Below are positions 4,535-53,336 of a stretch of 57,226 nucleotides of DNA, in pieces. Position 1 is the first letter of the stretch. Each line of letters opens with the position of its first letter. The stretch lies in the sequence record DRR378314_1853; one strand, given 5' to 3'. Below the pieces are notes generated by a model. The model worked only from the letters and a program-made list of their open reading frames with translations, was not told the DNA's origin and searched no databases. The position numbers and the translations under genes are program-made.

Positions 4535-5005
4535 ATGAAAAACCACCTATACCATACCACGGTGCAATGGACGGGAAATGAAGGAAAAGGCACTTTAGAT
4601 CCCAAATCCTACAATAGAAACCATGAAATCTCCTGTCCAGAAAAATATAATGCAATAAGGGGATCGTCAGATGCCGCTTTTTCAGGGGACGGTAAAAGGT
4701 ATAATTCAGAAGATTTACTGGTTTCCTCCATCTCGGCCTGTCACATGCTTTGGTATCTTCATTTATGTGCCATAAACAAAATAGTAGTTACGGAATATAC
4801 CGATAAGGCTGTTGGACTAATGGAGGAAACATCCAATGGCAGTGGAAGATTTAAGGAAGTTACACTTCACCCCAATATTAAAATAACGGATGCCCAATTG
4901 ATCCAAAAGGCGATTCAGCTGCATTCGGAAGCCAATAAAATGTGCTTCATCGCCAATTCCTGCAATTTCAAAATCAATCATAAACCCACTATTACGGTTG
5001 AATAA
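4535..5005 (+). CDS. OsmC family peroxiredoxin-like protein
   Basis: SACHMLWYL and CFIANS two-cysteine motifs; W-x-G-N start. The ATG at 4535 is preferred over the TTG at 4499. Confidence 0.85.
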   Translation: MKNHLYHTTVQWTGNEGKGTLDPKSYNRNHEISCPEKYNAIRGSSDAAFSGDGKRYNSEDLLVSSISACHMLWYLHLCAINKIVVTEYTDKAVGLMEETSNGSGRFKEVTLHPNIKITDAQLIQKAIQLHSEANKMCFIANSCNFKINHKPTITVE

Positions 5006-5050
5006 TAATTTCAACTTATATTTGGGAGGCCATGTAAAGACAATATCCGT

Positions 5051-5878
5051 ATGATCAATAGAGTATTTCAACTTACCATAGTTTTATTTTCCATGCTATC
5101 CTTGAGTTATGGACAGGACACAAACGAAAGGACCCAATTTTTCCCGAAAGTAGAACTGGCGGTAGAAAATATTCCAAATAAAGAGAACCTATGGGTTTTT
5201 ATACTCGCGGGACAATCCAATATGGCCGGAAGAGGATTAGTGGAACCTCAGGATACCGTTCCCAACAATAGAGTATATACCCTGAACAAACAGGGAAATA
5301 TCATCTTCGCCAAGGAGCCCCTACATTTTTATGAACCAACAATGGCCGGGTTGGACAGCGGACTTTCGTTCGGTAAGGCCTTGATCAAACATATTCCGGA
5401 CAGTATTTCGGTGCTATTAATTCCAACTGCGGTAGGGGGAAGCTCAATTTCACAATGGTTAAACGATTCTATCCATAGAGAGGTTAAACTATTCTCCAAT
5501 TTCAAACAAAAAGCGGAGTTGGGTATGCGTTTTGGGACAGTAAAAGGAATTCTTTGGCATCAGGGTGAAAGTGATGCCAAAACCAAGGAGGCTCCATTGT
5601 ACCAAATCAAATTATCGGAGTTGTTCTATCAATTCAGAAAGATAATTGGGAACCAAGAGACAACAGTTGTAATAGGGCAATTGGGCAGTTATTCAACCAA
5701 TCCATTGTGGTCAAAGATTAATGACCACATTAAATACTATGTATCTACTGATCCATATTCAGGGATGATCAATACGCAGGACCTAAAGGACAAAGGGGAT
5801 AAGGTGCACTTTAATTCCGAAGCACAGCGGCTCATGGGTGAAAGATTTGCCAATGAATTTATTAAAATACAGCATTAG
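5051..5878 (+). CDS. Sialate O-acetylesterase (SASA/CE6-like SGNH esterase)
   Basis: GQSNMAG, WHQGESD and DKVH (DxxH) motifs; signal peptide. Confidence 0.85.
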   Translation: MINRVFQLTIVLFSMLSLSYGQDTNERTQFFPKVELAVENIPNKENLWVFILAGQSNMAGRGLVEPQDTVPNNRVYTLNKQGNIIFAKEPLHFYEPTMAGLDSGLSFGKALIKHIPDSISVLLIPTAVGGSSISQWLNDSIHREVKLFSNFKQKAELGMRFGTVKGILWHQGESDAKTKEAPLYQIKLSELFYQFRKIIGNQETTVVIGQLGSYSTNPLWSKINDHIKYYVSTDPYSGMINTQDLKDKGDKVHFNSEAQRLMGERFANEFIKIQH

Positions 5879-35444: not shown

Positions 35445-37028
35445 ATGATTACAGGGAAAAACTATATTGGAGTAGATACATCGGCCAGGAACAGTAGAAC
35501 ATATTCAACTTTCAATCCAAAATTAAATAAACCTACGGAATGGATTTTCCATGAGGCTTCCCAAGAAGAGGTAAATGCCGCTGTAGACAAGGCGGCACTT
35601 GCATTTGAAACCTATGGCAAATTTCCAGACGCCAAAAAAGCCGAATTTTTAAAGGCTATTGCCAGTGAAATTGAAGCCTTGGGTGATGAATTGATTTCGG
35701 TTTATGTCCAAGAATCCGGATTACCTGAAGGTAGGGCAAAAGGGGAGCGAGGAAGAACTATGGGACAACTACGGGCTTTTGCTACCTTGTTGGAGGAAGG
35801 TTCTTGGGTAGAGGCCACTATAGATACCGCACAACCAGATAGGGAACCATTGCCAAAAGTAGACATCAGAAAAATGCTGCTTCCCATTGGCCCCATTGCA
35901 GTATTTGGCGCCAGCAATTTTCCATTGGCCTTTTCCACTGCCGGGGGAGATACCGCCAGTGCCTTGGCTTCTGGCTGCCCTGTAATTGTAAAAAGTCACC
36001 CAATGCATGCCGGCACAGGAGAGTTGGTAGCCTCGGCCATTGCTAAAGCAGCTAAAAAGACGGGCATGCCGGATGGTGTTTTCTCCAACCTAAATAGTAG
36101 AGATTCTGAGGTAGGACAATTATTGACCATGCACCCAAAAGTAAAAGGAGTAGGTTTTACAGGGAGTACCAATGGAGGTATGGCCCTTTATAAATTGGCC
36201 TCGCAAAGAAAAGAGCCGATTCCGGTATTTGCCGAGATGGGCAGTATTAACCCAGTAGTGGTGCTATCTTCAGCCTTGGAACAAAAAAGCTCCGAATGGG
36301 CTTCGCAATACGCGGGTTCCATTGTATTGGGAGCTGGACAATTTTGTACTAATCCAGGACTTATAATAGGTATAAAAGGACAGGCCTTCGATGGTTTTAT
36401 AGCCAACCTTGGCAAGGAAATAGAAAAACTGGAGCCTACTTGCATGTTACACCCCAACATTTACGAAGGTTACGAAAAAGGTAAAAAGGAATTGTCTTCC
36501 CAGCCCAAAACAGCGGAAGTGGCTGCTTATAAAGGTGAAACCGCCCCTAATTTCGGTGAACAAAAAATATTGACCGTTGCTGCGCAAGACTTTTTGGACA
36601 ATCCCGTGTTACATAAGGAGGTTTTTGGTCCGTTTTCAATTGTTGTACAATGCCAGGACAAAGCGGAATTGGTTACCGTAATCCAGCATTTGGAAGGACA
36701 GTTAACAGGAACTATTCTAGGGACGGAAACCGAGATAAAAACGAGTCCAGAGGTAGTGAGCGCTTTGGTAAATAGGGTAGGGCGTATAATCTTTAACGGG
36801 GTCCCCACCGGAGTGGAAGTTTGCCCATCAATGATGCATGGCGGCCCATTTCCTTCCACTACGGACAGCAGGTTCACCTCCGTTGGAACTTCGGCCATAA
36901 GACGATGGGTCAGGCCAGTATCTTTCCAAAGTTGGCCCGAAGAAATATTACCGGATGCCTTAAAGAATAATAATCCCTTGGACATTATGAGGCTAGTAAA
37001 CGGTGAGCACAGCAAACAGAAGATTTAG
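35445..37028 (+). CDS. Alpha-ketoglutaric semialdehyde dehydrogenase (NADP+ ALDH)
   Basis: FGASNFPLAFSTAGGDTASALA, AEMGSINP, GQFCTNPG, EVFGP, HGGPFPST...TSVG. Confidence 0.85.
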   Translation: MITGKNYIGVDTSARNSRTYSTFNPKLNKPTEWIFHEASQEEVNAAVDKAALAFETYGKFPDAKKAEFLKAIASEIEALGDELISVYVQESGLPEGRAKGERGRTMGQLRAFATLLEEGSWVEATIDTAQPDREPLPKVDIRKMLLPIGPIAVFGASNFPLAFSTAGGDTASALASGCPVIVKSHPMHAGTGELVASAIAKAAKKTGMPDGVFSNLNSRDSEVGQLLTMHPKVKGVGFTGSTNGGMALYKLASQRKEPIPVFAEMGSINPVVVLSSALEQKSSEWASQYAGSIVLGAGQFCTNPGLIIGIKGQAFDGFIANLGKEIEKLEPTCMLHPNIYEGYEKGKKELSSQPKTAEVAAYKGETAPNFGEQKILTVAAQDFLDNPVLHKEVFGPFSIVVQCQDKAELVTVIQHLEGQLTGTILGTETEIKTSPEVVSALVNRVGRIIFNGVPTGVEVCPSMMHGGPFPSTTDSRFTSVGTSAIRRWVRPVSFQSWPEEILPDALKNNNPLDIMRLVNGEHSKQKI

Positions 37029-37032
37029 ACTA

Positions 37033-38040
37033 ATGCCCAGAAAGACTTTTTTTTGTGTGGATGCCCATACCTGCGGTAATCCCGTTAGGGTAGTTGCAGG
37101 GGGAGGACCTAATCTCCTAGGCGCGGACATGAGCGAAAAACGCCAACATTTTTTAAAGGAGTACGATTGGATTAGGAAAGGACTAATGTTTGAACCCCGC
37201 GGCCATGACATGATGAGCGGAAGTATTTTTTACCCGCCTTCCGATCCGGCCAACGATTTTGGCATCCTGTTTATAGAAACCAGTGGTTGTCTCCCCATGT
37301 GCGGACATGGTACCATAGGTGCAATTACCATAGGGATAGAGGAAGGGCTACTTTCTCCAAAAGAGCCAGGGAAAATAAGAATGGAAACTCCAGCGGGCTT
37401 GGTAAATATTGAATATCAACAAACCGGCAAAAAGGTGGATTGGGTAAAGTTGACCAATGTTAAATCATACCTTGCCGCGTCCGATCTTACCGTGAGTTGT
37501 TCAGATTTAGGGGAACTCGTTTTTGATGTCTCCTATGGGGGCAACTATTATGCTATTATTGATCCCCAAAAAAATTTTAAGGGCATTCAGGATTACTCCG
37601 CTGGCAAATTGGTCCAATACAGTCAGGAAATAAGGGAGAAAATAAATCTTAAATACCCCCACAAGTTTATACATCCAGAGAATCCAACCATCAATGGTGT
37701 TAGTCATATAGAATGGACGGGGAACACCATATCACCGGATGCCACCGCTAGAAATGCCGTTTTTTATGGGGATAAGGCTATAGACAGATCTCCCTGTGGT
37801 ACCGGTACCTCTGCACGAATGGCACAATGGCACGCCAAGGGCAAGCTAAAAGTAGGGGATGAGTTTATCCATGAAAGTTTTATCGGATCCCAATTTGTTG
37901 GAAAAGTGGAGGAGGAAACTACTTTGGCGGGAAAGACGGCCATCATTCCCAGTATTAAAGGATGGGCACAGGTTTATGGTTATAACAATATCATTATTGA
38001 TGATGATGATCCCTATGCACACGGTTTTCAAGTAATTTAA
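37033..38040 (+). CDS. 4-hydroxyproline 2-epimerase (proline racemase family, Cys/Cys)
   Basis: EPRGHDMMSG, MCGHG and DRSPCGTGT. Ser in MSG rather than the Phe of proline racemases. Confidence 0.88.
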   Translation: MPRKTFFCVDAHTCGNPVRVVAGGGPNLLGADMSEKRQHFLKEYDWIRKGLMFEPRGHDMMSGSIFYPPSDPANDFGILFIETSGCLPMCGHGTIGAITIGIEEGLLSPKEPGKIRMETPAGLVNIEYQQTGKKVDWVKLTNVKSYLAASDLTVSCSDLGELVFDVSYGGNYYAIIDPQKNFKGIQDYSAGKLVQYSQEIREKINLKYPHKFIHPENPTINGVSHIEWTGNTISPDATARNAVFYGDKAIDRSPCGTGTSARMAQWHAKGKLKVGDEFIHESFIGSQFVGKVEEETTLAGKTAIIPSIKGWAQVYGYNNIIIDDDDPYAHGFQVI

Positions 38041-38044
38041 GATC

Positions 38045-39295
38045 ATGGGAAAAGATGTAGTGATCATAGGTGGGGGAATAGTCGGACTCTGTTCTGCTTA
38101 TTTTTTACAAAAAGAAGGACATAAGATTACGGTATTGGACAAATCTGATATTACTTCCGGGGCTTCTTTTGTCAACGCTGGATATATTACCCCAAGCCAT
38201 ATTATTCCCTTGGCCTCCCCTGGAATGATTTCAAAGGGAATTAAATGGATGTTCAATTCGTCCAGTCCGTTTTATATGCAACCCCGTTGGGATACAGATT
38301 TTTTTAAATGGTCTTGGTATTTCCACAAATCCTCCACTAAAGAAAAAGTGGAGTTGGCCATACCATTGATCAAGGAAATAAATATAATTAGCAGGGAACT
38401 TTTCACCTCCATAAAGAATTCCGGGGATCTAGGGGATTTTCAACTGGAACGCAAGGGACTATTAATGCTTTATAAAACCGATAAGGAAGGTGAACATGAA
38501 ATGCAAGTAGCCAAAAAGGCTTCCTATTTAGGCCTGGAGGTTAGCTCTTTGAACAAAAAAGAACTGGATACACTTCAGCCAAATGTTACCATGAACGTCA
38601 AAGGTGCTATTCATTATGAGTGTGACGGACATACCACCCCAACAGAGTTCATGAAAAAAATGCTGGATTACTTGAAGAGAAGTGGGGTAATTGTTAAGAC
38701 GAATGAAGAGGTCATTGACTTATCCACTGAAAATGGCCGAATAACAAAGGTAACTACCAATAAGAATATCTATTCCCCTGAAGAAGTTGTCTTGGCAGCA
38801 GGCACTTGGAGCGATAATTTATCAAAGAAATTGAAAATTAAACTTCCTATACAGGCAGGGAAGGGTTATCGGATAAATGTTCCCAGACCCACTGGGATTA
38901 CTATTCCGGCCATTTTGATGGAAGCCAAGGTGGCGGTAACGCCAATGGCAGAATATACCCGTTTTGCGGGCACCATGGAATTCTCGGGAATCAATGATGT
39001 TATTAGAAAACAACGGGTTGAGGCCATCGCAAATGCCACCACCGAATTTTATCCGGAAATAAAAATAAGTGAGGCAGAAAAATTGGATGCCAAAAGTGGA
39101 TTACGACCCGTATCTCCAGACGGATTGCCCTATATTGGAAAGAGTAGCTCCCTAAAAAATTTAACCGTTGCAACCGGACACGCCATGATGGGTTGGAGTC
39201 TAGGCCCTGTGACCGGAAAATTGGTTTCGGAAATAATATCGGACAAAAAAACATCGATGGATATAAACGGCTTTTCTCCAAATAGACGATTCTAG
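38045..39295 (+). CDS. FAD-dependent D-amino acid dehydrogenase, probable cis-4-hydroxy-D-proline dehydrogenase
   Basis: GGGIVG, GASFVNAG, GKGY, GLRPVSPDGLPYIG, GHAMMGWSLGP; operon context. Confidence 0.8.
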   Translation: MGKDVVIIGGGIVGLCSAYFLQKEGHKITVLDKSDITSGASFVNAGYITPSHIIPLASPGMISKGIKWMFNSSSPFYMQPRWDTDFFKWSWYFHKSSTKEKVELAIPLIKEINIISRELFTSIKNSGDLGDFQLERKGLLMLYKTDKEGEHEMQVAKKASYLGLEVSSLNKKELDTLQPNVTMNVKGAIHYECDGHTTPTEFMKKMLDYLKRSGVIVKTNEEVIDLSTENGRITKVTTNKNIYSPEEVVLAAGTWSDNLSKKLKIKLPIQAGKGYRINVPRPTGITIPAILMEAKVAVTPMAEYTRFAGTMEFSGINDVIRKQRVEAIANATTEFYPEIKISEAEKLDAKSGLRPVSPDGLPYIGKSSSLKNLTVATGHAMMGWSLGPVTGKLVSEIISDKKTSMDINGFSPNRRF

Positions 39296-39432: not shown

Positions 39433-40599
39433 CTAATCACTACCGCCTGTCTCACCCAATAAATTAAACCCTCCTTTAACTATAACCTGATCACTATCCT
39501 TTAAATCGCCCATTTCTGCAATGGCCGTATATCCATTATAGCTATCACCAATTTTAACCGCCTTTGTTTCAAAAACACTTCCTTCATTTCCTTCAGAAAC
39601 CAAGGTTATAACGTAATGGTTATTATCCTGGACAATTACACTTTCAATGGGCAGGGCGTTTATACTCTTGTTAGAAGTAATGATAGCAGCCTCAACAAAC
39701 ATACCTACTGCAAAATTGTGGTTTTCATCATCGTGTAAATGACCGTGGACCTTTACCGTTCTACTGTCCGCATCAATGGAGGTCCCCACCAAATATACCT
39801 CGGCTTCGTAATATTCCGCTGAAGCTTCGGATATTTTAAAACGTATTTTTTGATCCTTTTTTATATTCATAATATCCTTTTCAAAGACGGACAATTCCAA
39901 ATGAATGTGATCGGTATTTATAATTTCCATAATTTCGTCGGCAGGGGAGACATACATCCCCTTACTAACATTTACTTTGGTTATATTTCCGTCTATTGGG
40001 GCAAAAATGGTTGCCTCAGATGCCAAAATTCCTTTTTCAACATTATCCGGAGAAATATTTAACATTTTTAGTTTTTGTCGTAACCCGTTGTATCTGGCAA
40101 GATTGCGTTTGTATTCGCTCTCTGCCTTTAAAAAATTCTTTTGTGAGGTTATGTTTTCGGCAACTAGACTTTTTTGGCGGTCAAATTCGGATTTCAAAAA
40201 ATTAAGCTGTTCAAAGCTTTCTTGATAATCCTGTTGCAATTGTATAAATTCGGGATTTTCCAATGTAAGTAGAGGCTGTCCTTTTTTTACCTTATTTCCG
40301 ATCAAAAGGGGAGTTCTTTTTATATATCCCCCGGCAAATGCACTTACTATTGCTTTATTTTGGGGAGGAACGTCTATGGTCCCAGCAACCACTACCTCTA
40401 CAGGGAAGTTTTGTTGACTAATACGCCCAAGTTCCATGCCCTCTCCGTCAAATTGGGCTTTGGAAATGGCAATGGTATTTGTCGCTTGTTCACTTGGGTC
40501 AGCATTGGCAGCAACATTGCTTTTTTCATTGGAATCCCCGCATGCAGACACATTGAGGAAAAGGACTGTTACAATAAGTATATATAGTAATCGTGACAT
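39433..40599 (-). CDS. RND efflux periplasmic adaptor subunit (CzcB/CusB-like lipoprotein)
   Basis: Lipobox VSAC, lipoyl half-motifs (GNKVKKGQPL, IFAPIDG), coiled hairpin; 10 nt downstream of czcA. Confidence 0.9.
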   Translation of the reverse strand: MSRLLYILIVTVLFLNVSACGDSNEKSNVAANADPSEQATNTIAISKAQFDGEGMELGRISQQNFPVEVVVAGTIDVPPQNKAIVSAFAGGYIKRTPLLIGNKVKKGQPLLTLENPEFIQLQQDYQESFEQLNFLKSEFDRQKSLVAENITSQKNFLKAESEYKRNLARYNGLRQKLKMLNISPDNVEKGILASEATIFAPIDGNITKVNVSKGMYVSPADEIMEIINTDHIHLELSVFEKDIMNIKKDQKIRFKISEASAEYYEAEVYLVGTSIDADSRTVKVHGHLHDDENHNFAVGMFVEAAIITSNKSINALPIESVIVQDNNHYVITLVSEGNEGSVFETKAVKIGDSYNGYTAIAEMGDLKDSDQVIVKGGFNLLGETGGSD

Positions 40600-40609
40600 A
40601 GTATTTATT

Positions 40610-43600
40610 TTATAAGTTTAAATAATTGATAGCAATGACCGTTTGATTATAGGCATTAAGGTTCTCAAGATAAGTTAGGGTAATATTGTACCCATTTTCC
40701 ATACTCTGTATATATTGAAAAAAGTCTATTTCCCCGCTCTGATAGCTTAAGGTCGCCGTTTTTATAATTTCATCGGCAAGAACTTGACCTTCAGTCTCGT
40801 AATAGGCAAGCACTTCTTGATACTTTTTTAATTGTCCCATAAGTGACTGGTATTTGGTCCTTAACTGAACAGTATAATCCTCGGCTTCCGCCAGGGACAT
40901 CTCCTTGGCTATTTTGGCTGCCTTAATTTTGGAGGCATTACCACTAAAAAACAACGGAATCTTAACCCCCACCTGAAAACCATAAAGGTTCTCTCCCAAA
41001 GTGGAATTGGTTCCCTGGAAATAATTAAAATTCAGGTCCGGCAATAAATATTGCTGCTCTAGAGTACTTTTTGCTTGGAACATTTTTGTCCTATTTTCAA
41101 AAAACGACATCCCTGCATTATTTTCAAGATTCACATCCATTAAATGAAGTTTTTCCATAGGTATTGTCCTAACCAACAGTATAGAATCTGGCTGTACCGT
41201 TTTAATGAGTTCCTGATACGCCAAATTGGAATCTTCAATTGCTTTTTTGTAAAGTGTCTGAAGTTCCTTTTGTTTGGCCTGTGCCGTTATTTTTTCCAAA
41301 TAGTTGCTTTCGCCAAGTTCAAACCTGCGTTGGGCGGAGTAGGAAAAGCGTTCATACAGATCATTTAGTTCGCTATAGGTCTTTTCCTTGTGCCTTGCGT
41401 ATTGCAATCCATGATAATTGGAAGCCAGCTCCTGTTCCAGAATTCGCTTTTTCCGTTCATGAGCACTACTTTCTGTAAGATAATTGGCCTTATTGACACC
41501 TTTTTCTGCAAAATAAACGGTTGGAAAAAGGAAGTTCTGCTGTACACCAAAGACCTCCAAAGGCTTGTTGTTGATGGCGATATTGTTTTGATCGTAATGA
41601 TAGTATAGGTCTGTCTTATCAAAACTGAAGGCACTGCCTATAAGCGCTTTGGATTCATCCACCTTAAGTTTCGATGCCCTTAGGCCAGAGTTGTTATTTA
41701 AGGCCAAGGTGTGTATTTCATCAAAACTGAGTCCCTCCTCCTGTGCCTGAACACCACTGATACCAATTAAGAAAAGTATTACCAAACTTAGGACTTTTAC
41801 ATTGTTCTTGGAATTGACCGTCTCCTTTTTATCTTTTAAATGAAAAATAGAGTAGAGTATGGGCAATACCACCAACGTTAATATAGTGGCGGTAATAAGC
41901 CCTCCAATAACTACTGTGGCAAGTGGTCTCTGCACCTCTGCGCCTACGTTAGTGGATATAGCCATAGGAAGGAATCCCAGTGCGGCAGCGGATGCCGTCA
42001 ACAAAACGGCTCTTAACCTATCTTTTGATCCCTGTATAATAAGTTCGTCCGAATCTTCCATACCTGCGTGTTTTAATTCTTTAAAATGTTCTAACAACAC
42101 AATTCCATTGAGTACGGCAATCCCGAAAAGGGCTATGAAACCAACACCCGCAGAGATACTAAATGGCATATCCCTAACAAACAAAAGAAGTATTCCTCCA
42201 ACGGCCGCCAAAGGAATGGCCGAGTAAATAATCAGTGCCTCCCTTATTGAGCTAAATGCAAAATAGAGTAATATCAGAATAAGTACCAACGCCACTGGCA
42301 CTGCAATTTTCAGTCGGTCTTTGGCACTTTGTAAATTTTCGAACTGCCCCCCGTAAGTGATGGTGTAGCCTGTAGGTAGCTTTACATTTATTTCGATCAG
42401 CTTTTGAATGTCATCTACCACCGACTGAAGGTCCCTATTCCTTACATTGATACCCACTACTATCCTGCGTTTGGTATCGTCCCTAGAGATTTTGGCCGCT
42501 CCGGTCGTATAGGAGATTTGGGCCAACTCCCCTAAAGGAATCTTACCGGCCGACGGAGTGTCCACATATAAATTCTTAAGATTGGAAATATCCTGTCTAC
42601 TTTTTTGATCCAGTCTTAGTGTTAGGTCAAATCGCTTTTCTCCCTCAAAAACACTCCCTAGGTTGGTCCCTGCAAACCCCATGGAAATAAGATTGTTTAA
42701 ATCAGCAATATTAAGACCATATCTGGCAATCTTTGCCCTGTCGAATTTTACGTTCATTTGCGGAAGTCCTGCAATTTTCTCTACCGTTATGTCTGCCGCG
42801 CCCTCCACATTCTGAATAAGATTTCTTATTTCATTTCCTTTTTTATTCAAGATTTCCAGGTCCTCCCCGAAAATTTTAATGGCAATATCCGCGCGGACAC
42901 CCGTAATAAGTTCATTAAAGCGCATTTCAATGGGCTGGGTAAATTCTACCTCCATACCAGGGATCACTCCCAGGGCCTCCTTGAATTTATCTGCCAATTC
43001 ATCCTTAGTCTCTGCAGAAACCCATTCCTTTTTGGATTTAAGGATAATAATAACATCGCTTTCCTCCATAGACATAGGATCCGTGGGTACTTCTGCCGCA
43101 CCTATTCTGGTTACCACCTGTTTTACTTCCGGGAAATTATCAATTAGAATCCGTTCTATCTTAGTGGTAATTTCAACAGTTTCGCTCAAAGAGGTCCCTG
43201 TTTTCAAAACGGGTTGTATCACAAAGTCCCCCTCGTCCAAGGTAGGCACAAACTCTCCGCCCATAGTGGTAAATAGGTATATGGATCCCCCCAATAGCAC
43301 GACAGAAATAGCCAACACCACCTTTTTCTTTTTTAGTGCCCAACGGATAATGGGATCATAAGATCTATTTAGAAAATCCATTAGACGTACCGAAATGTTT
43401 TTTGAGGACTTGGTAGATGGTCTTATAAATATGGAGGCGGCCACCGGAACATAGGTAAAACATAAGATCATGGCACCTATTAAGGCAAAACTAAAGGTGA
43501 GCGCCATGGGTTTGAACATTTTCCCCTCTACACCACTTAAGGATAGGATTGGAATGAATACGATGAGTATAATTAGCTGCCCAAAAATAGCCGAGTTCAT

Positions 43601-44947
43601 CATTTTGGAAGCGCCATTAAAGGTAATTTCATTTTTTAGTTGCTGTCGGGCCCTTGCTCCCAGCAATTGCAATTCTCCTTTCTTAGCGGTTATTTGATAG
43701 GCTATGAATTCGACAATAATAACTGCACCATCTATAATGATCCCAAAGTCTATGGCCCCTAGGCTCATCAGGTTTGCATCTACCCCAAAAATATACATCA
43801 TTGAGAGGGCAAATAATAAACAAAGTGGAATTACGGAAGCCACTACCAAACCTGAACGGAGATTTCCCAACAGCAGAACAACCACAAAAATTACGATCAA
43901 ACATCCAAGGATTAGGTTCTCTGCCACAGTAAAGGTTGTTTTTCCAATAAGCTCGCTACGCTCCAAAAATCCATTTATAAAAACACCTTCGGGCAAGGTC
44001 TTGGAAATAGCGTCTATGCGTTCATGAACAGCTTCAATAACCTTTTTGGAATTGGCATCCTTAAGCATCATTACCTGTCCCAAAACCTTTTCTCCTTCCC
44101 CATTTCCGGTAATGGCCCCAAAACGGGTGGCACTGCCAAAACCAACATTGGCTACATCCTTAATATAAATAGGTAGGTTGTCCGTTGATTTAACTACAAT
44201 ATTTTCAATATCCTTAAGGGAAGATATAAGCCCTTCCCCCCGAATAAAGTAGGCCTGGTTTACTTTTTCTATATAACCACCTCCCGAAACGCTATTATTC
44301 TTTTCCAAGGCCGTAAAAATTTCGGCAGTGGTAATATTCATGGCATGCAGCTTTTGAGTGTTTATAGCTACTTCATATTGTTTTAAATAGCCGCCCCAAG
44401 TATTCACCTCCACTACTCCAGGAATTCCCGAAAGTTGCCTCTTCACCACCCAATCCTGAATGGTACGCAGATCCATGGCAGAATACTTGTCCTTATACCC
44501 CGGCTTAGTATCCAGAATGTATTGGTAAATTTCTCCAAGACCAGTAGTGATAGGGCCCATTTGGGGAGTACCGAATCCTGCGGGGATTTTCTCGGAGGCA
44601 GAGATTAACTTTTCGGAAATTAACTGTCGGGGCAGATAAGTGCCCATATTGTCCTCAAAGACGATGGTGACTACCGAGAGTCCAAATTTTGACACCGATC
44701 GAATTTCAATAACACCGGGCAAATTGGCCATTTCCAGTTCCACGGGATAGGTTATGAATTGCTCCATATCCTGAGTGGATAAATTCTGGGAGGTGGTAAT
44801 TACCTGTACCTGGTTATTGGTAATATCGGGAACAGCTCCAATGGGTATCTGCGTTAAGGAATACAGTCCAAAACCTATAATAAATAATGTGAGTAAAAAA
44901 ACAATTAATTTGTTCTTTATACTGAATTGTATAATATTGGATAACAT
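40610..44947 (-). CDS. czcA: CusA/CzcA heavy-metal RND transporter fused to a C-terminal TolC-like outer-membrane factor
   Basis: AVPDIT, DFGIIIDGAVIIVE (HME TM4 motif), PTLDEGD, GFIALFGIAVLNG, GAEVQRPLATVVIGG. An extra helical domain of about 380 aa carries OEP-type motifs (RRFELGESNYLE, YQSGEIDFFQY). Confidence 0.9.
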   Translation of the reverse strand: MLSNIIQFSIKNKLIVFLLTLFIIGFGLYSLTQIPIGAVPDITNNQVQVITTSQNLSTQDMEQFITYPVELEMANLPGVIEIRSVSKFGLSVVTIVFEDNMGTYLPRQLISEKLISASEKIPAGFGTPQMGPITTGLGEIYQYILDTKPGYKDKYSAMDLRTIQDWVVKRQLSGIPGVVEVNTWGGYLKQYEVAINTQKLHAMNITTAEIFTALEKNNSVSGGGYIEKVNQAYFIRGEGLISSLKDIENIVVKSTDNLPIYIKDVANVGFGSATRFGAITGNGEGEKVLGQVMMLKDANSKKVIEAVHERIDAISKTLPEGVFINGFLERSELIGKTTFTVAENLILGCLIVIFVVVLLLGNLRSGLVVASVIPLCLLFALSMMYIFGVDANLMSLGAIDFGIIIDGAVIIVEFIAYQITAKKGELQLLGARARQQLKNEITFNGASKMMNSAIFGQLIILIVFIPILSLSGVEGKMFKPMALTFSFALIGAMILCFTYVPVAASIFIRPSTKSSKNISVRLMDFLNRSYDPIIRWALKKKKVVLAISVVLLGGSIYLFTTMGGEFVPTLDEGDFVIQPVLKTGTSLSETVEITTKIERILIDNFPEVKQVVTRIGAAEVPTDPMSMEESDVIIILKSKKEWVSAETKDELADKFKEALGVIPGMEVEFTQPIEMRFNELITGVRADIAIKIFGEDLEILNKKGNEIRNLIQNVEGAADITVEKIAGLPQMNVKFDRAKIARYGLNIADLNNLISMGFAGTNLGSVFEGEKRFDLTLRLDQKSRQDISNLKNLYVDTPSAGKIPLGELAQISYTTGAAKISRDDTKRRIVVGINVRNRDLQSVVDDIQKLIEINVKLPTGYTITYGGQFENLQSAKDRLKIAVPVALVLILILLYFAFSSIREALIIYSAIPLAAVGGILLLFVRDMPFSISAGVGFIALFGIAVLNGIVLLEHFKELKHAGMEDSDELIIQGSKDRLRAVLLTASAAALGFLPMAISTNVGAEVQRPLATVVIGGLITATILTLVVLPILYSIFHLKDKKETVNSKNNVKVLSLVILFLIGISGVQAQEEGLSFDEIHTLALNNNSGLRASKLKVDESKALIGSAFSFDKTDLYYHYDQNNIAINNKPLEVFGVQQNFLFPTVYFAEKGVNKANYLTESSAHERKKRILEQELASNYHGLQYARHKEKTYSELNDLYERFSYSAQRRFELGESNYLEKITAQAKQKELQTLYKKAIEDSNLAYQELIKTVQPDSILLVRTIPMEKLHLMDVNLENNAGMSFFENRTKMFQAKSTLEQQYLLPDLNFNYFQGTNSTLGENLYGFQVGVKIPLFFSGNASKIKAAKIAKEMSLAEAEDYTVQLRTKYQSLMGQLKKYQEVLAYYETEGQVLADEIIKTATLSYQSGEIDFFQYIQSMENGYNITLTYLENLNAYNQTVIAINYLNL

Positions 44948-45023
44948 AATTCATTTATAAAAAAATTGCAAGCTATTGCAAAACAGCTTGTTAAATAATG
45001 ATTTCAATCAGTAATGAATTATG
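44945..45023 (-). promoter_or_regulatory. Predicted mRNA structure sequestering the czcA start codon, with a nested terminator-like hairpin
   Basis: Perfect 11-bp inverted repeat CATAATTCATT (44945-44955) / AATGAATTATG (45013-45023). Inner hairpin at 44970-44991 followed on the mRNA by CAA-U8. Confidence 0.6.
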
Positions 45024-45417
45024 CAGTCTTGGGGGGTTGGAAAATATCGGAATTTTCTATTTGACAATAAGATTCCTGATAAAAATAGTTTGAAGTGGTA
45101 TCTGCCACTTGAGGAGTTTTAGGTACCATAAAATCTGCTCTGCTCAGTACAAAGGCAGTGGAATAATGGGAGCAGGTTTGATGATTGAAAGGCAATTCTT
45201 CATGATCCTTCTGTTCCTCCCTATGTTCCAAATCGTGCTGGGTTTTAAGTTCCCCATAATGTTTGGATATAAAAACAAACAAGTTATCCCCATATTTCTC
45301 TTTGTGGAATTGGGCATGAGTCATAAAATCATCCAATTGGGCAACATCTACCATATCCAAATTAAAACTTTGGAACAGCAATAAAATCGACAACGTTATG
45401 GAAAATAATTTGCTCAT
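45019..45417 (-). CDS. His-rich exported protein with C-terminal IFQPP motif; candidate regulatory uORF/arrest peptide for czcA
   Basis: 132 aa from ATG 45417. N-terminal hydrophobic signal, 8 His and 2 Cys, ends SDIFQPPKTA, 71 nt upstream of czcA. Confidence 0.7.
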   Translation of the reverse strand: MSKLFSITLSILLLFQSFNLDMVDVAQLDDFMTHAQFHKEKYGDNLFVFISKHYGELKTQHDLEHREEQKDHEELPFNHQTCSHYSTAFVLSRADFMVPKTPQVADTTSNYFYQESYCQIENSDIFQPPKTA

Positions 45418-45484
45418 TTGCCCACTAAAGATAAGAAATAATAATCTCTCACAATAAAAGCTGTTACTAACTTTTTGCCAAATG

Positions 45485-46189
45485 TTATTCAATGACTACC
45501 AAGGCTTTGATCAAAGCCTCTTTTTTATGCCTGCTCAAAGGAATAACTTGTTCGTTTATTTCTACCGTGGAACCGTTAAAATTTTCAATCTTTTCCAAAT
45601 TAACCGTATAGGATTTGTGGATTCTAAGAAATTTATCCTTGGGCAATTGCTTGGCAAAGGCCTTCATGGTAGAGAGTATTAAAGTCTTTTTATCCGTGGA
45701 GATAATCTTCACATAATCTCCATAAGCCTCTATCCATAAAATCTCGTTCAGGAATAGTTTAGTTTTTTTAAGGTTACTATTTACATAAATATATTCCAGC
45801 TCAATCTCCTCCGCATTTTCATGTTCGTAATTGTTAATTGCCTTTCTTATGGAAACATCAAATCGGGTTTTATCCACTGGTTTCTGTAAATAATCCGTTA
45901 CGTCATAATCGAAGGCCTTCATGGCATAATTGGGGTTGCCGGAAATAAGTATAACCTGTGGTTTATGTTCCAAGGATTCCAGGAATTCGAATCCGTTGAA
46001 ACCTGGCATTTCAATATCCAAAAATATTAAGTCTATAATATTGCTGCCGATGTCCTTTTTTGCATCTACACCATTATCGTATTCATTTATAAGATCAAGC
46101 TTGGAGTGTTCCTTTATTATTTTAGCTACTGCGCGGCGTTGTACCGTAGAGTCGTCTATTAAAATGCATTTTAATTTAGTTTTTTTCAT
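45485..46189 (-). CDS. LytTR family response regulator (orphan)
   Basis: Receiver IDD/FLDIEMP/DYLQKP; LytTR domain IEAYGDYV, FLRIHKSY. Confidence 0.92.
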   Translation of the reverse strand: MKKTKLKCILIDDSTVQRRAVAKIIKEHSKLDLINEYDNGVDAKKDIGSNIIDLIFLDIEMPGFNGFEFLESLEHKPQVILISGNPNYAMKAFDYDVTDYLQKPVDKTRFDVSIRKAINNYEHENAEEIELEYIYVNSNLKKTKLFLNEILWIEAYGDYVKIISTDKKTLILSTMKAFAKQLPKDKFLRIHKSYTVNLEKIENFNGSTVEINEQVIPLSRHKKEALIKALVVIE

Positions 46190-49991: not shown

Positions 49992-50414
49992 ATGAACGAA
50001 TACAAGGAGAAAATTCTAAAAATTTGCAATGAGCATAACAAAGCTACCCTAATGGAAACCTTGAATATAGAATATATTGACGTTGGAGAGAATTATTTGG
50101 TGGCAAAAATGCCAGTTACTTCGCAGGTACATCAACCCGATGGGGTATTACATGGTGGTGCCACTGTGGCATTGGCCGAAAGTGTAGGAAGTATGGCTTC
50201 CCACATTTTTTTGGATACCAAAGAATTTTTTGTTCGTGGTTTGGAAATATCGGCCAATCATGTCAAAAGCATCAGGGAGGGAGATGTTTACGCTAGGGCA
50301 GAGGTGGTACATAAAGGACGTACCACACAAATTTGGGATATTAAAGTAACGGATAAAGACGGAAACCTAATTTCAATTTGCAAACTTACCACCATTGCCT
50401 TATCCAAAAAATAG
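49992..50414 (+). CDS. menI: PaaI/hotdog thioesterase, probable DHNA-CoA hydrolase
   Basis: HQPDGVLHGGATVALAE, GLEISANH, GRTTQIW; heads the men cluster. Confidence 0.75.
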   Translation: MNEYKEKILKICNEHNKATLMETLNIEYIDVGENYLVAKMPVTSQVHQPDGVLHGGATVALAESVGSMASHIFLDTKEFFVRGLEISANHVKSIREGDVYARAEVVHKGRTTQIWDIKVTDKDGNLISICKLTTIALSKK

Positions 50415-50415
50415 T

Positions 50416-51525
50416 ATGTCCCTAGGTTTTTTAGATCAAATTGAAGAGCACTTTCGTCAAGGATTGCCATTTGTTGCCTATAGAAAACCCAATAAGGCTG
50501 AAGTAAAGGTAATTTTTCAAAATGACCGGGAATTACATTATATAAACAACTTTACCGAGAGTGGCTTTGTATTCGCACCCTTTAATGGGGAAGGACCTGC
50601 AGTCTTAATTAAAGAGGACGAAGCTTTAGAGGAAACCTTTGAATCGGAACCGGTAAACGCCAAAAATCCAATTTCCCCTTCATTAGATCAGGACTCCGAT
50701 AAAGATTTTTACCTCAAATTAATAGAACAGGCAATCAAAAGCATTGATTCGGGAAATTTAAAAAAGGTGGTACTATCCAGAAGTATAGAAGTAGGGACCT
50801 CAAAGACCCCTTTTGTTATGTTCAGCGATTTGCTCCTCCAATATCCAAAAGCTTTTTGTTATATCTGGTTCCATCCTAAAATTGGGCTGTGGTTGGGAGC
50901 CACTCCCGAAATATTTTTGGAAACTGAAAACAATAAATTTAGGACTATGTCCTTAGCTGGCACCCAATTGCATAAGGTTGGAGAAGCACCAATTTGGAAA
51001 GAAAAAGAAATTGAAGAGCAGGAGATGGTGACCCAATTTATTTATAGCTCACTGAAAGACAAGGTTTCTTCCCTAGAGGTATCCGAGGCCATGTCTATTA
51101 GAGCGGGCAATCTTTGGCATATTAAATCGTCCGTTTCTGGAAATATGAATAATTCGCGGCTCCAAGAAATTATAGAAGTCCTACACCCAACGCCGGCCGT
51201 TTGTGGACTACCAAAAAATGCGGCTAAAGAATTTATTTTGGAAAATGAGAATTATGAACGCCAATTCTATACAGGTTTTTTGGGAGAGTTAAATTTTAAG
51301 GAAGATATCAGACGGCCATCAATAAGAAAAAATCAGGAAAATATGGCCTATAGGACCATAAAGAACAGGACCTCCTTGTATGTAAATTTAAGATGCATGC
51401 AGGTACTGGAAAACAAGGTAAAAGTCTATGTGGGCGGCGGCATAACCAGTAGGTCGGTCCCCGACAAGGAATGGCAGGAGACACTGGATAAAAGTAGGAC
51501 CATGTTAAATATAGTTTTAAAGTAA
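50416..51525 (+). CDS. menF: Isochorismate synthase
   Basis: KVVLSR, GATPE, LAGT, LHPTPAVCG, YVNLRC, YVGGGIT; adjacent to menD. Confidence 0.85.
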   Translation: MSLGFLDQIEEHFRQGLPFVAYRKPNKAEVKVIFQNDRELHYINNFTESGFVFAPFNGEGPAVLIKEDEALEETFESEPVNAKNPISPSLDQDSDKDFYLKLIEQAIKSIDSGNLKKVVLSRSIEVGTSKTPFVMFSDLLLQYPKAFCYIWFHPKIGLWLGATPEIFLETENNKFRTMSLAGTQLHKVGEAPIWKEKEIEEQEMVTQFIYSSLKDKVSSLEVSEAMSIRAGNLWHIKSSVSGNMNNSRLQEIIEVLHPTPAVCGLPKNAAKEFILENENYERQFYTGFLGELNFKEDIRRPSIRKNQENMAYRTIKNRTSLYVNLRCMQVLENKVKVYVGGGITSRSVPDKEWQETLDKSRTMLNIVLK

Positions 51526-51581
51526 ACCAAAAACCAGCTATGAATTGGTTTTAGAAATACCTGAGTTGTATTTTTGCAATA

Positions 51582-53336
51582 ATGAAATATTCCAATATTC
51601 CCACCGCACAGTCACTTGTCCATCATTGCAAAGCAAGGGGCATTAAAAATATAATTATATCTCCGGGATCAAGAAATGCACCTTTGACCATAAGTTTTTC
51701 GGAAGACCCTTTTTTTAATTGTTATAGTATCGTTGACGAGCGTTGCGCTGCATTTTTTGCTCTGGGCATATCACAGCAACTAATGCAACCTACAGTAATT
51801 TTATGTACCTCAGGCAGTGCATTGTTAAACTATTATCCCGCCATTGCGGAAGCTTTCTATAGCGATATACCACTAATTGTTATATCGGCGGATAGGCCCT
51901 CTTATAAAGTGGATATAGGGGACGGACAAACCATAAGACAGGAAAATGTGTTTGAAAAGCATATTGGTCACTCCGCAAACCTAAAACAGGATGTTTGTCA
52001 TGCCACCCATAAAATCAGGAAATATGACCCAGATCAATTAGCGGAAGAAAATATTGACCAATCCCAAATTCTGGTTCAAAAGACCAATGACAAAGCACTT
52101 AACAAGGCACTTAATATTGCCATTGCCAATAATACTCCCGTACATATAAATATTCCGTTCGAAGAGCCTTTGTACGAAACAGTGGAGGAATCCCCACTTT
52201 TGCCACAGATTGAGTTATTGAAGAAGCAAGGGGAAAATGGTCTAGACGAATGGCAGGACTATATTCATAGCTGGCAAAATGCTTCCCGAAAAATGGTGTT
52301 GGTCGGGGTAAATCCGCCTAACGCGGTTGAAAAAATGTATTTGGAAATTCTTGCCAAAGATCCAACGGTTGTGGTAATGACGGAATGTACTTCCAATTTA
52401 TTTCATCCCAACTTTTTCCCCAATATAGACAGTATAATAGCTCCTATTGAGAAATCCGCCAACAAGGAAGAATTGTTCAAAATGCTACGCCCGGAAATTG
52501 TCCTAACATTTGGGGGGCTTATTGTTTCGAAAAAAATAAAGGCTTTTTTAAGGGATTATACCCCTTTAATGCATTGGCATGTAAATCCCAAAAAAGCATA
52601 CAACACCTTTTTTAGTCTAACAAAACATTTTAAAACGACTCCCAACGAATTATTTAAAAACCTTTTGGCAAACCCTTCGTCCCAAGAAAGTAACTATTAT
52701 GACTATTGGACAAAAAGGAAGGATCATTACAAGTTAAGAAGACAACTGTACTTACTGGAAATACCATTTTCTGACATGTGGGTATTCCATAAGACTTTGG
52801 AAAGTATTCCAAGTAATTATCAACTACAACTGTCCAACAGTTCTACTGTTAGATATGCCCAATTATTCGATTTGGAGCCCTCTATCCGTGTTTTCTGCAA
52901 TAGAGGCACCAGTGGTATAGATGGCAGTACTTCAACGGCCATAGGGGCTTCGATTTATGAATCCAGTCCAACATTGCTGATTACGGGCGATTTAAGCTTT
53001 ATCTATGACAGCAATGGTCTATGGAACAATTACATTAAACCCAATTTTAGGATAATCGTTATCAATAATGGTGGCGGCGGCATTTTTAGAATTTTACCTG
53101 GCAAAGAGGAAACCGACAATTTCAATACCTTCTTTGAGACAACCCATAATCTTAATATCCAATCCATAGCTGAAATGTACAACTTTGAATTTGAGTCCGT
53201 TTCCAACAAAATCGACTTAATTGAAGCCTTGGGGAATTTCTATAAAGCATCCGAAAAACCCAAAATTCTTGAAATAAAAACGCCTAGATTATTAAATAAC
53301 AATATTTTGCTTAGTTATTTTGATTTCATATCTTAG
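51582..53336 (+). CDS. menD: SEPHCHC synthase
   Basis: SPGSRNAPL, DERCAAFFALG, CTSGSA, SADRP, NRGTSGIDG, GDLSF, NNGGGGIF. Confidence 0.95.
   Translation: MKYSNIPTAQSLVHHCKARGIKNIIISPGSRNAPLTISFSEDPFFNCYSIVDERCAAFFALGISQQLMQPTVILCTSGSALLNYYPAIAEAFYSDIPLIVISADRPSYKVDIGDGQTIRQENVFEKHIGHSANLKQDVCHATHKIRKYDPDQLAEENIDQSQILVQKTNDKALNKALNIAIANNTPVHINIPFEEPLYETVEESPLLPQIELLKKQGENGLDEWQDYIHSWQNASRKMVLVGVNPPNAVEKMYLEILAKDPTVVVMTECTSNLFHPNFFPNIDSIIAPIEKSANKEELFKMLRPEIVLTFGGLIVSKKIKAFLRDYTPLMHWHVNPKKAYNTFFSLTKHFKTTPNELFKNLLANPSSQESNYYDYWTKRKDHYKLRRQLYLLEIPFSDMWVFHKTLESIPSNYQLQLSNSSTVRYAQLFDLEPSIRVFCNRGTSGIDGSTSTAIGASIYESSPTLLITGDLSFIYDSNGLWNNYIKPNFRIIVINNGGGGIFRILPGKEETDNFNTFFETTHNLNIQSIAEMYNFEFESVSNKIDLIEALGNFYKASEKPKILEIKTPRLLNNNILLSYFDFIS

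Follow-up and report, generated by a model that had tools for sequence, protein, structure and literature searches.

Among the closest described systems, CutF of Rhodobacter capsulatus ends in PPPRL, with the PPP two residues before the stop, and a PAP mutant loses induction according to the accessible text of bioRxiv 10.1101/2025.02.05.636593. Arrest has been demonstrated for CruR, as stated in the available part of PMC12992588. Bacteroidota appear on the CutF-like list in the accessible part of PMC9973294 (40% normalised, 19% raw), as do CusA/CzcA neighbours, and its His-only clusters precede HupE/UreJ genes. Candidate arrest peptides of the Pro-stop type (NSP, NAP) are found only in Bacteroidota in the available text of PMC10987492. 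Here we analyzed a small open reading frame (ORF), hereafter the leader, which lies directly upstream of a czcA-type efflux pump gene in the window, that is, the whole stretch of 57,226 nucleotides from sequence record DRR378314_1853. The leader ends in a QPP tail, and the region of its stop codon pairs with the czcA start codon. The leader locus is conserved and probably regulatory.

An earlier inspection of this DNA (the sequence-only reading) knew of no QPP-type system in the phylum. Our literature search, which covered subscription journals thinly, likewise found no study of a QPP-type or DUF6660 leader. The novelty is nevertheless partial, since CutF-like proteins located before CusA/CzcA genes in Bacteroidota are already listed in the accessible part of PMC9973294.

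The leader and its QPP tail are conserved upstream of czcA

Re-reading the sequence returned the proposed 132-aa ORF at 45417-45019 on the minus strand, with the end IFQPPKTA and Pro128-Pro129 (45036-45031) three codons ahead of the TAA. The proposed pairing was also found, as CAUAAUUCAUU (45023-45013) is the exact complement of AAUGAAUUAUG (44955-44945). The main features of the locus are as follows.

45019..45417, minus strand: leader ORF, 132 aa, supported by homology searches and without a Pfam or NCBIfam family
45367..45417, minus strand: hydrophobic helix predicted at the N-terminus (residues 1-17), either an export signal or a signal anchor (structure model and 63-row alignment)
45187..45354, minus strand: helical His domain, residues 22-77, with H34xxxH38, H53-Y54, His 61/65/72 and LPF at the end; candidate metal site (conservation and model)
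45046..45186, minus strand: spacer, residues 78-124, without predicted secondary structure, variable in sequence and fixed in length (alignment and model)
45031..45042, minus strand: F-Q-P-P, candidate pause motif three codons before the stop (tail conservation)
45013..45024, minus strand: 5' arm of the stem, comprising the last codon GCA, the stop UAA and 6 nt more (predicted fold, covariation)
44944..44955, minus strand: 3' arm of the stem, czcA -8 to +4, including A-3 and the AUG (accessibility, covariation at -4 and -5)
40610..44947, minus strand: RND pump of the czcA/cusA family, 1445 aa, with a fused outer-membrane efflux domain (TIGR00914, PF00873, PF02321)

A scan of the window proteins gave zero Pfam or NCBIfam matches for the leader, and the pump passed the CusA/CzcA test (TIGR00914, 1166 bits; cut-off 701). 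An alternative 157-aa ORF starting from TTG 45492 was disfavored, as the homologues align from ATG 45417.

Homologous loci were compared in a family-level set of 131, consisting of 130 of 138 matches plus the window; the 8 omitted ones lay at contig edges, were split or stop-broken, or were among the weakest. A subset of 95 loci below 70% leader identity was used for most measurements, and residues were aligned in 63 rows. The next gene is czcA in 129/131 loci at a median distance of 79 nt (71 nt in the window), and the arrangement of leader, QPP, stem and czcA is conserved across the set. Terminal PP recurs in all 61 more distant loci (one probably spurious), 45 of which have czcA next; several of the other 16 precede VIT1, cation-efflux, HMA, DUF3347 or TonB-dependent receptor genes. 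In a third set of 64 loci, PP was present in 62 and czcA was next in 48.

The tail is conserved throughout the set. PP lies within the last 12 residues in 131/131 loci (QPP 124, HPP 3, EPP 3, YPP 1), with 2-3 residues following it in 128, and the residue two before PP is F in 115, L in 13 and R in none. By comparison, such a PP tail ends only 4/244 ordinary ORFs. Because every synonymous codon is in use in QPP (all four for Pro and both for Gln), the motif is kept as a peptide. The last Ala codon is GCA in 40/49 cases, against 143/481 inside the ORF.

The stop/start stem is under selection

In the window, one added G-U pair extends the 11-bp complement to 12 bp, and this stem is the closing helix of a predicted structure with two inner hairpins (z = -4.16, 0/200 shuffles as stable; z = -2.62 in a longer fold window). 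In the free mRNA, the predicted unpaired probability is about 0 from -6 to the czcA AUG. No known RNA family came near a gathering score at the locus.

Across the 95 loci, the native duplex between stop and start windows averaged -11.35 kcal/mol, compared with -7.28 kcal/mol when the starts came from other loci, and the native partner beat the swapped one in 86 of them. The remaining controls gave -5.83 kcal/mol (shuffled), -4.31 or -5.75 kcal/mol (shifted windows) and -5.38 kcal/mol (44 ordinary gene pairs). A duplex at -10 kcal/mol or better was present in 66/95 leader loci and in 4/44 ordinary gene pairs, although the latter were read from first-ATG starts, of which just 20 carry A at -3, so that this particular control may be less strong. 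In the two distant sets, native was better than swapped in 32/38 and 31/39 loci.

When unselected loci were read in a fixed register, pair +4/-4 was Watson-Crick in 63/83 (39.6 expected), with UA, AU, CG and GC all occurring, and pair +5/-5 in 50/83 (31.5 expected); pairs +6/-6 and +8/-8 showed no such excess. Because relatives are not independent, 93 loci were then paired on the czcA tree. Among the tree-independent pairs, native partners were more stable in 35, less stable in 7 and equal in 4 (p = 1.5e-5); for a control window the split was 22 versus 21. Pairing survived double changes in 32/71 cases in register, as opposed to 6-12 of 44-68 off register. A stricter per-column tree test on supported branches, for which there were too few pairs, gave no significance. 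Covariation in the stem was thus found by both the register test and the tree-pair test, and the stop/start pairing is under selection. A chance stem arising from AT-rich stop and start contexts was ruled out by the swapped, shuffled, shifted-window, gene-pair and tree-pair controls.

The best helix pairs the stop exactly with the AUG in 49/95 loci and elsewhere slides onto the -10 to -25 region, which in F. johnsoniae holds the positive determinants A-12 and A-13 (accessible part of PMC6847099).

A histidine domain lies at a fixed distance from QPP

The structure model predicts a hydrophobic helix over residues 2-17, then a helical domain to residue 73 with high confidence, and no regular structure beyond. 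A hydrophobic 12-mer was present in 63/63 aligned rows (median hydropathy 2.6, minimum 1.7), which suggests that the leader is exported. Conservation in these rows reached 98% for H34 and H38, 87% for H53, 90% for H72 and 100% for P76, and H53-Y54 and LPF were conserved as well. The 8 His and 2 Cys of the earlier description are present, but C82 is the only Cys in the middle and the second one, C118, falls in the spacer. No Cys column is conserved, and because 15/63 homologues contain no Cys at all, the conserved feature is His and not His/Cys. The His core may bind metal; on account of its His ligands and the pump family, our guess is Zn, Co, Cd or Ni. A Foldseek search with the leader model returned no match, and a further fold search gave a best Z of 3.9.

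The HxxxH...H[YF] core occurs in 85/95 and 64/64 loci, with the third His 70-77 residues ahead of Pro1 in 84/85. The LPF-to-PP distance is 51-55 aa in 81/81 loci with the motif (absent in 14/95), and yet the spacer has the lowest mean column conservation of the protein (0.31, versus 0.53 for the His domain). A fixed spacer length of 45 residues is reported as functionally important for CruR in the accessible text of PMC9426467, and a periplasmic domain folds on the ribosome at ~70 residues according to the available part of bioRxiv 2021.02.06.430026. The His-to-Pro1 spacing is close to the latter value, so the core would be at folding distance from a paused ribosome.

The same anatomy might suggest a SecM-type export monitor, in which the pause would report Sec capacity or envelope stress and not metal. 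A signal-like N-terminus, a spacer and terminal prolines do form the layout of monitoring substrates, as outlined in the accessible part of PMC10987492. However, the invariant residues here are His, and the downstream genes are metal-related (czcA at 129/131 loci, and the genes named above among the 16 distant exceptions). We therefore regard such a monitor as very improbable.

A ribosome at QPP or at the stop could open the czcA start

On the mRNA, a ribosome reaches 12-15 nt downstream. In 64/95 loci the first base of the 5' arm is +10 to +14 nt from Pro1, where a ribosome at PP would have its mRNA entry edge. Opening the czcA start of the window costs 10.2 kcal/mol in free mRNA, 9.1 or 4.4 kcal/mol when Pro1 occupies the P site and 12 or 15 nt, respectively, are covered, 3.4-4.4 kcal/mol with Pro2 in the P site and 3.6 kcal/mol at the stop. 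The family median drops were 3.6 kcal/mol for Pro1 with 15 nt covered, 3.6-4.2 kcal/mol for Pro2 and 4.8 kcal/mol for termination; among the control pairs, 1/44 dropped by 3 or more. The proposal that a paused ribosome frees czcA thus holds if about 15 nt are covered at Pro1 and fails if 12 are, whereas a terminating ribosome opens the start fully. Since both a pause at PP and termination can do so, the direction of control is not decidable from sequence. Output of an efflux pump has to go up in the presence of metal, which leaves two options: a pause lengthened by metal, or a metal-triggered release after which the ribosome melts the stem. The sequence-only reading had combined a pause that frees czcA with metal-tuned release; metal would then turn the pump off, and the combination had to be abandoned.

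We consider it fairly probable that metal tunes the pause in one direction or the other. Our favored explanation, to which we give slightly less than an even chance, is that the leader acts in cis as a CutF-like metal-sensing leader and that metal prolongs the QPP pause. One promoter would produce a nearly leaderless leader-czcA-czcB mRNA, on which the predicted stem would hide the czcA AUG together with the A-rich upstream bases that matter in this phylum lacking Shine-Dalgarno (SD) use. The leader would be exported during synthesis, and with the ribosome at QPP the three-His core, ~75 residues away, would be just in the periplasm. Without metal, the ribosome would pass QPP and terminate fast, and the stem would re-form. 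Metal on the nascent chain would, as reasoned from CutF, prolong the pause, and the ribosome would hold the outer pairs open while czcA-czcB is translated. In favor of this speak the QPP retained as a peptide near the stop, the length-fixed spacer, the distance of the third His from Pro1, the partner-specific stem with its 5' arm near the ribosome edge, the different sensor domains found at one position before fused czcA genes, and the CutF precedent.

Alternatively, the ribosome may pause at QPP by default, short of the stem, until metal-induced folding of the His core pulls the chain free; it would then reach the stop and melt the 5' arm, and czcA would initiate or re-initiate. In such a release-on switch, the stem itself may help the QPP pause. 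A ribosome at PP has the beginning of the stem right at its front edge, so the stem could indeed be opened by release or by plain termination. The stop codon marks the middle of the 5' arm, the start opens fully only once the ribosome is in the last codons or at the stop, and at Pro1 a footprint of 12 nt has no opening effect. Moreover, the His core sits at folding-force distance, and the CruR pause is relieved by metal in the accessible account of PMC9426467. Nevertheless, the CutF PAP mutant, with similar spacing, reaches the stop without pausing and yet does not induce the next gene, as far as the available text on CutF describes it, and a 15-nt footprint at Pro1 already yields three quarters of the opening. 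We rate this alternative as unlikely.

Plain translational coupling was also considered. Here any ribosome finishing the leader would melt the stem, and the leader would be a small periplasmic metal-binding accessory protein whose QPP is otherwise used. A terminating ribosome does open the stem fully in the calculations, and the structure model predicts a well-folded His domain. This explanation, however, accounts neither for a length-fixed, sequence-variable, unstructured spacer with an invariant PP near the stop nor for unrelated sensor domains with the same tail and position, and such stems are rare in ordinary gene pairs (4/44 versus 66/95 at -10 kcal/mol or better). Hence it appears doubtful to us.

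Several points weigh against the favored explanation, in which metal prolongs the pause. Some loci, 23/95 by a z above -2, have a weak stem or none. With 12 nt covered at Pro1, the median drop in opening cost is 0.2 kcal/mol, and 13/95 loci drop by 3 or more. CA-ending last codons did not differ significantly with stem register (30/46 versus 24/49, p = 0.15). The Arg found in RAPP-type motifs is missing from QPP, a motif of which the accessible parts of PMC12992588 and PMC10987492 give no example. From a His domain that folds and binds metal, a pull that ends the pause would be more readily expected than a longer pause. Finally, pausing at QPP, metal binding and regulation are all inferred for the leader family from its sequences.

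The transcript probably starts at the leader and continues into the pump genes

Three further elements bear on transcription of the locus.

45426..45433, minus strand: candidate Bacteroidota -7 promoter element TATCTTTA (sequence and recurrence at homologous loci)
44969..44990, minus strand: inner hairpin of 9 bp with CAA and a U run behind it; resembles a terminator at the window locus (fold and terminator scoring)
39433..40599, minus strand: periplasmic adaptor (czcB/cusB-like), 10 nt past czcA (TIGR01730 above cut-off, PF16576)

The position of the TATCTTTA box, 8 nt 5' of the leader ATG at 45433-45426, agreed with the sequence-only reading. Taken alone, motifs of this type are about as common in the window as chance predicts (129 against an expected 122.6). 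Among the homologues, a -7 motif lies 4-10 nt before the leader start in 64/95 and is absent from the 60 nt before czcA in 86/95, which is consistent with a single, nearly leaderless transcript. For comparison, the Bacteroidota consensus is TAHHTTTG with the start 4-5 nt downstream, according to the accessible part of PMC6847099.

The inner hairpin raises transcription attenuation as another explanation. In this view the pause would govern termination, either at the hairpin itself or through Rho as for CruR, and the stop/start stem would be of secondary importance. The hairpin is terminator-like at the window locus, and 5 or more U follow an inner-type hairpin more often in the homologues (34/95) than in controls (5/44). 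On the other hand, the U run is offset from the hairpin by 3 nt at the window locus and weak in most homologues, and the region has hardly more terminator-like hits than expected by chance (10 versus 7.1). It is also on the stop/start stem that selection is demonstrable, and the leader-czcA gaps are short (median 79 nt, versus 162 nt for cruR). We thus judge attenuation to be quite improbable; the inner hairpin probably serves mainly to bring the stem arms together.

No regulator gene recurs as a conserved neighbour in the 131 loci, in line with the suggestion of a sensor independent of transcription factors. A LytTR response regulator gene (45485-46189, minus strand) lies directly upstream of the leader in the window. 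Control by this gene was rejected: it is adjacent in 3/131 loci only, namely the window and its two closest relatives, as judged from a flank of 1500 nt at 30 loci and 600 nt at 100. Elsewhere in the window, 35445-39295 (plus strand, convergent) presumably encodes hydroxyproline catabolism (aldehyde dehydrogenase, proline racemase/epimerase, FAD oxidoreductase), and 49992-53336 (plus strand) is taken by us to encode menaquinone biosynthesis (thioesterase, isochorismate synthase, MenD), both by eye.

Leaders of several types precede fused czcA genes

The leader protein was matched in 121/301 genomes of the family, and its profile in 67/401 genomes of the phylum. Its homologues form 2407 protein clusters at 50% identity, with Arenibacter proteins as the closest named relatives. 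Among the cluster members listed, 7/15 are 111 aa long, apparently starting at Met22 (window 45354) without the signal region; on account of such database copies, the family would be missed by signal-peptide filters.

In a reverse test started from 150 of 233 czcA matches, a small PP-ending ORF was found upstream of 47/68 fused pumps (27/47 newly read and 20/21 read earlier, hand-counted) and of 0/20 unfused pumps (two more had no flank), nearly all of which sit after an adaptor-like gene. Leaders before fused czcA were of His/QPP, DUF6660 Cys/QPP and RAPP/RGPP types; although unrelated as sensor domains, they share this position and the terminal PP. A bolder reading is that QPP leaders with interchangeable His or Cys sensors control most fused czcA pumps phylum-wide without a transcription factor, by a logic not described so far: metal-driven periplasmic folding would release a ribosome waiting short of the stem between leader stop codon and pump AUG, which would melt the stem and turn the pump on in a system without SD use; we think it improbable in this full form.

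Several variants of the locus should be pointed out. Many family genomes carry a second, divergent paralogous leader-czcA pair (L110 (G001:C1), L096-L129) with CC after the His region and the stem shifted to about -4 to -22 of czcA; it likely serves a pump for another metal. Leaders L008 and L090 have no czcA next, and the next gene of L008, 301 nt on, is VIT1-like by eye. In the named Flavobacterium/Flavobacteriaceae records L222-L225 (about 5001-5720), leader and stem are retained, but of czcA only a short N-terminal piece is left, 26-39 codons long in L223-L225 and with a frameshift in L222. Downstream of L222 runs a series of DUF2231-like, VIT1, thioredoxin, ApbE and DUF3570 genes, and the leader at these four loci may have been co-opted to another operon. 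Ten one-family loci (L339, L341-L349) have a different His/Cys-containing leader of ~153 aa, 137-180 nt upstream of a fused czcA; its tail, L-x-T/S-V/I-V/I-L-L-N/I without terminal PP, is possibly another kind of arrest or sensor tail. In a profiling table of F. johnsoniae, which was outside the third set of 64 loci, Fjoh_4462 (4341 nt, equated with czcA on length alone) has low counts, and the 480 nt upstream of it are an unannotated gap, so that the table contains no row for a leader.

Comparison with known systems

New here are the His-core/QPP family, tree-controlled covariation on an AUG-masking stem, and a fixed spacer ruler. If the proposed sensing is true, nascent-chain metal sensing would extend from copper and Proteobacteria to His-liganded metals and Bacteroidota, would gain a proline motif without the RAPP arginine, and would be shown to work where ribosomes ignore SD sequences. 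A small leader ending in PP precedes about 70% of the fused czcA genes that were examined, so this may be the phylum's main control of these pumps. The compensatory variants and the fixed spacer offer ready-made mutants for a tractable host.

SecM/MifM/Apd substrates resemble the leader in their targeting signal, spacer, proline-containing end and stem over the downstream start, as far as the accessible parts of PMC10987492 and PMC12992588 describe them. They differ in that the next gene here is not a Sec/YidC component and no Arg stands three residues before the last Pro.

CruR of Bordetella pertussis (DUF2946/PF11162) shares an export signal, a fixed spacing from metal motif to PP and a PP three residues from the end, but represses an importer through Rho, according to the available text of PMC9426467. 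The spacing is 70-77 residues in the leader against 45 in CruR. The window protein lacks the CxxC of DUF2946/CruR, and its tail is FQPP, not the C-terminal RAPP. It gave no match to PF11162 at E up to 1, and 1/63 members did (E 0.016). In the ESM Atlas, the nearest named cluster is DUF2946/CzcI (0.92, 115/256 shared features), which is a lead only.

The Bacteroidota family DUF6660 (PF20365) also has its place before czcA, an N-terminal hydrophobic helix and a W/F-Q-P-P tail. A profile-profile match with the leader (probability 97%, E 4.5e-11) indicates a distant relationship only, and two leaders of this kind exceed the Pfam cut-off for DUF6660. Unlike the leader, DUF6660 has a CxPFCxCxCC cluster and no His-core helices; the window leader has neither a PF20365 match nor a Cys cluster.

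The closest likeness in layout is to CutF. By the rule-based description of CutF-like proteins (<150 aa, PP in the last 15 residues, a same-strand next gene within 1000 nt), the leader qualifies with 132 aa, PP at 128-129 and 71 nt. Its stem also masks a downstream start within reach of a ribosome at the prolines, the opening depending on the assumed footprint. As in the accessible account of CutF in PMC9973294, a small first gene with a Sec-type N-terminus, a metal motif and a proline run 2-3 residues before the stop is followed by a stem hiding the initiation site of the next gene, which detoxifies metal. On the other hand, so far as that account goes, CutF has CxxxC in place of the three-His helical core and PEGPPP in place of F/W-Q-P-P-K/R, and the leader stem pairs with the AUG and Kozak-like bases instead of an SD, with an RND pump as the target. 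The two are thus set side by side by layout and not by sequence similarity, and the leader most likely works like CutF while standing outside both DUF2946 and DUF6660.

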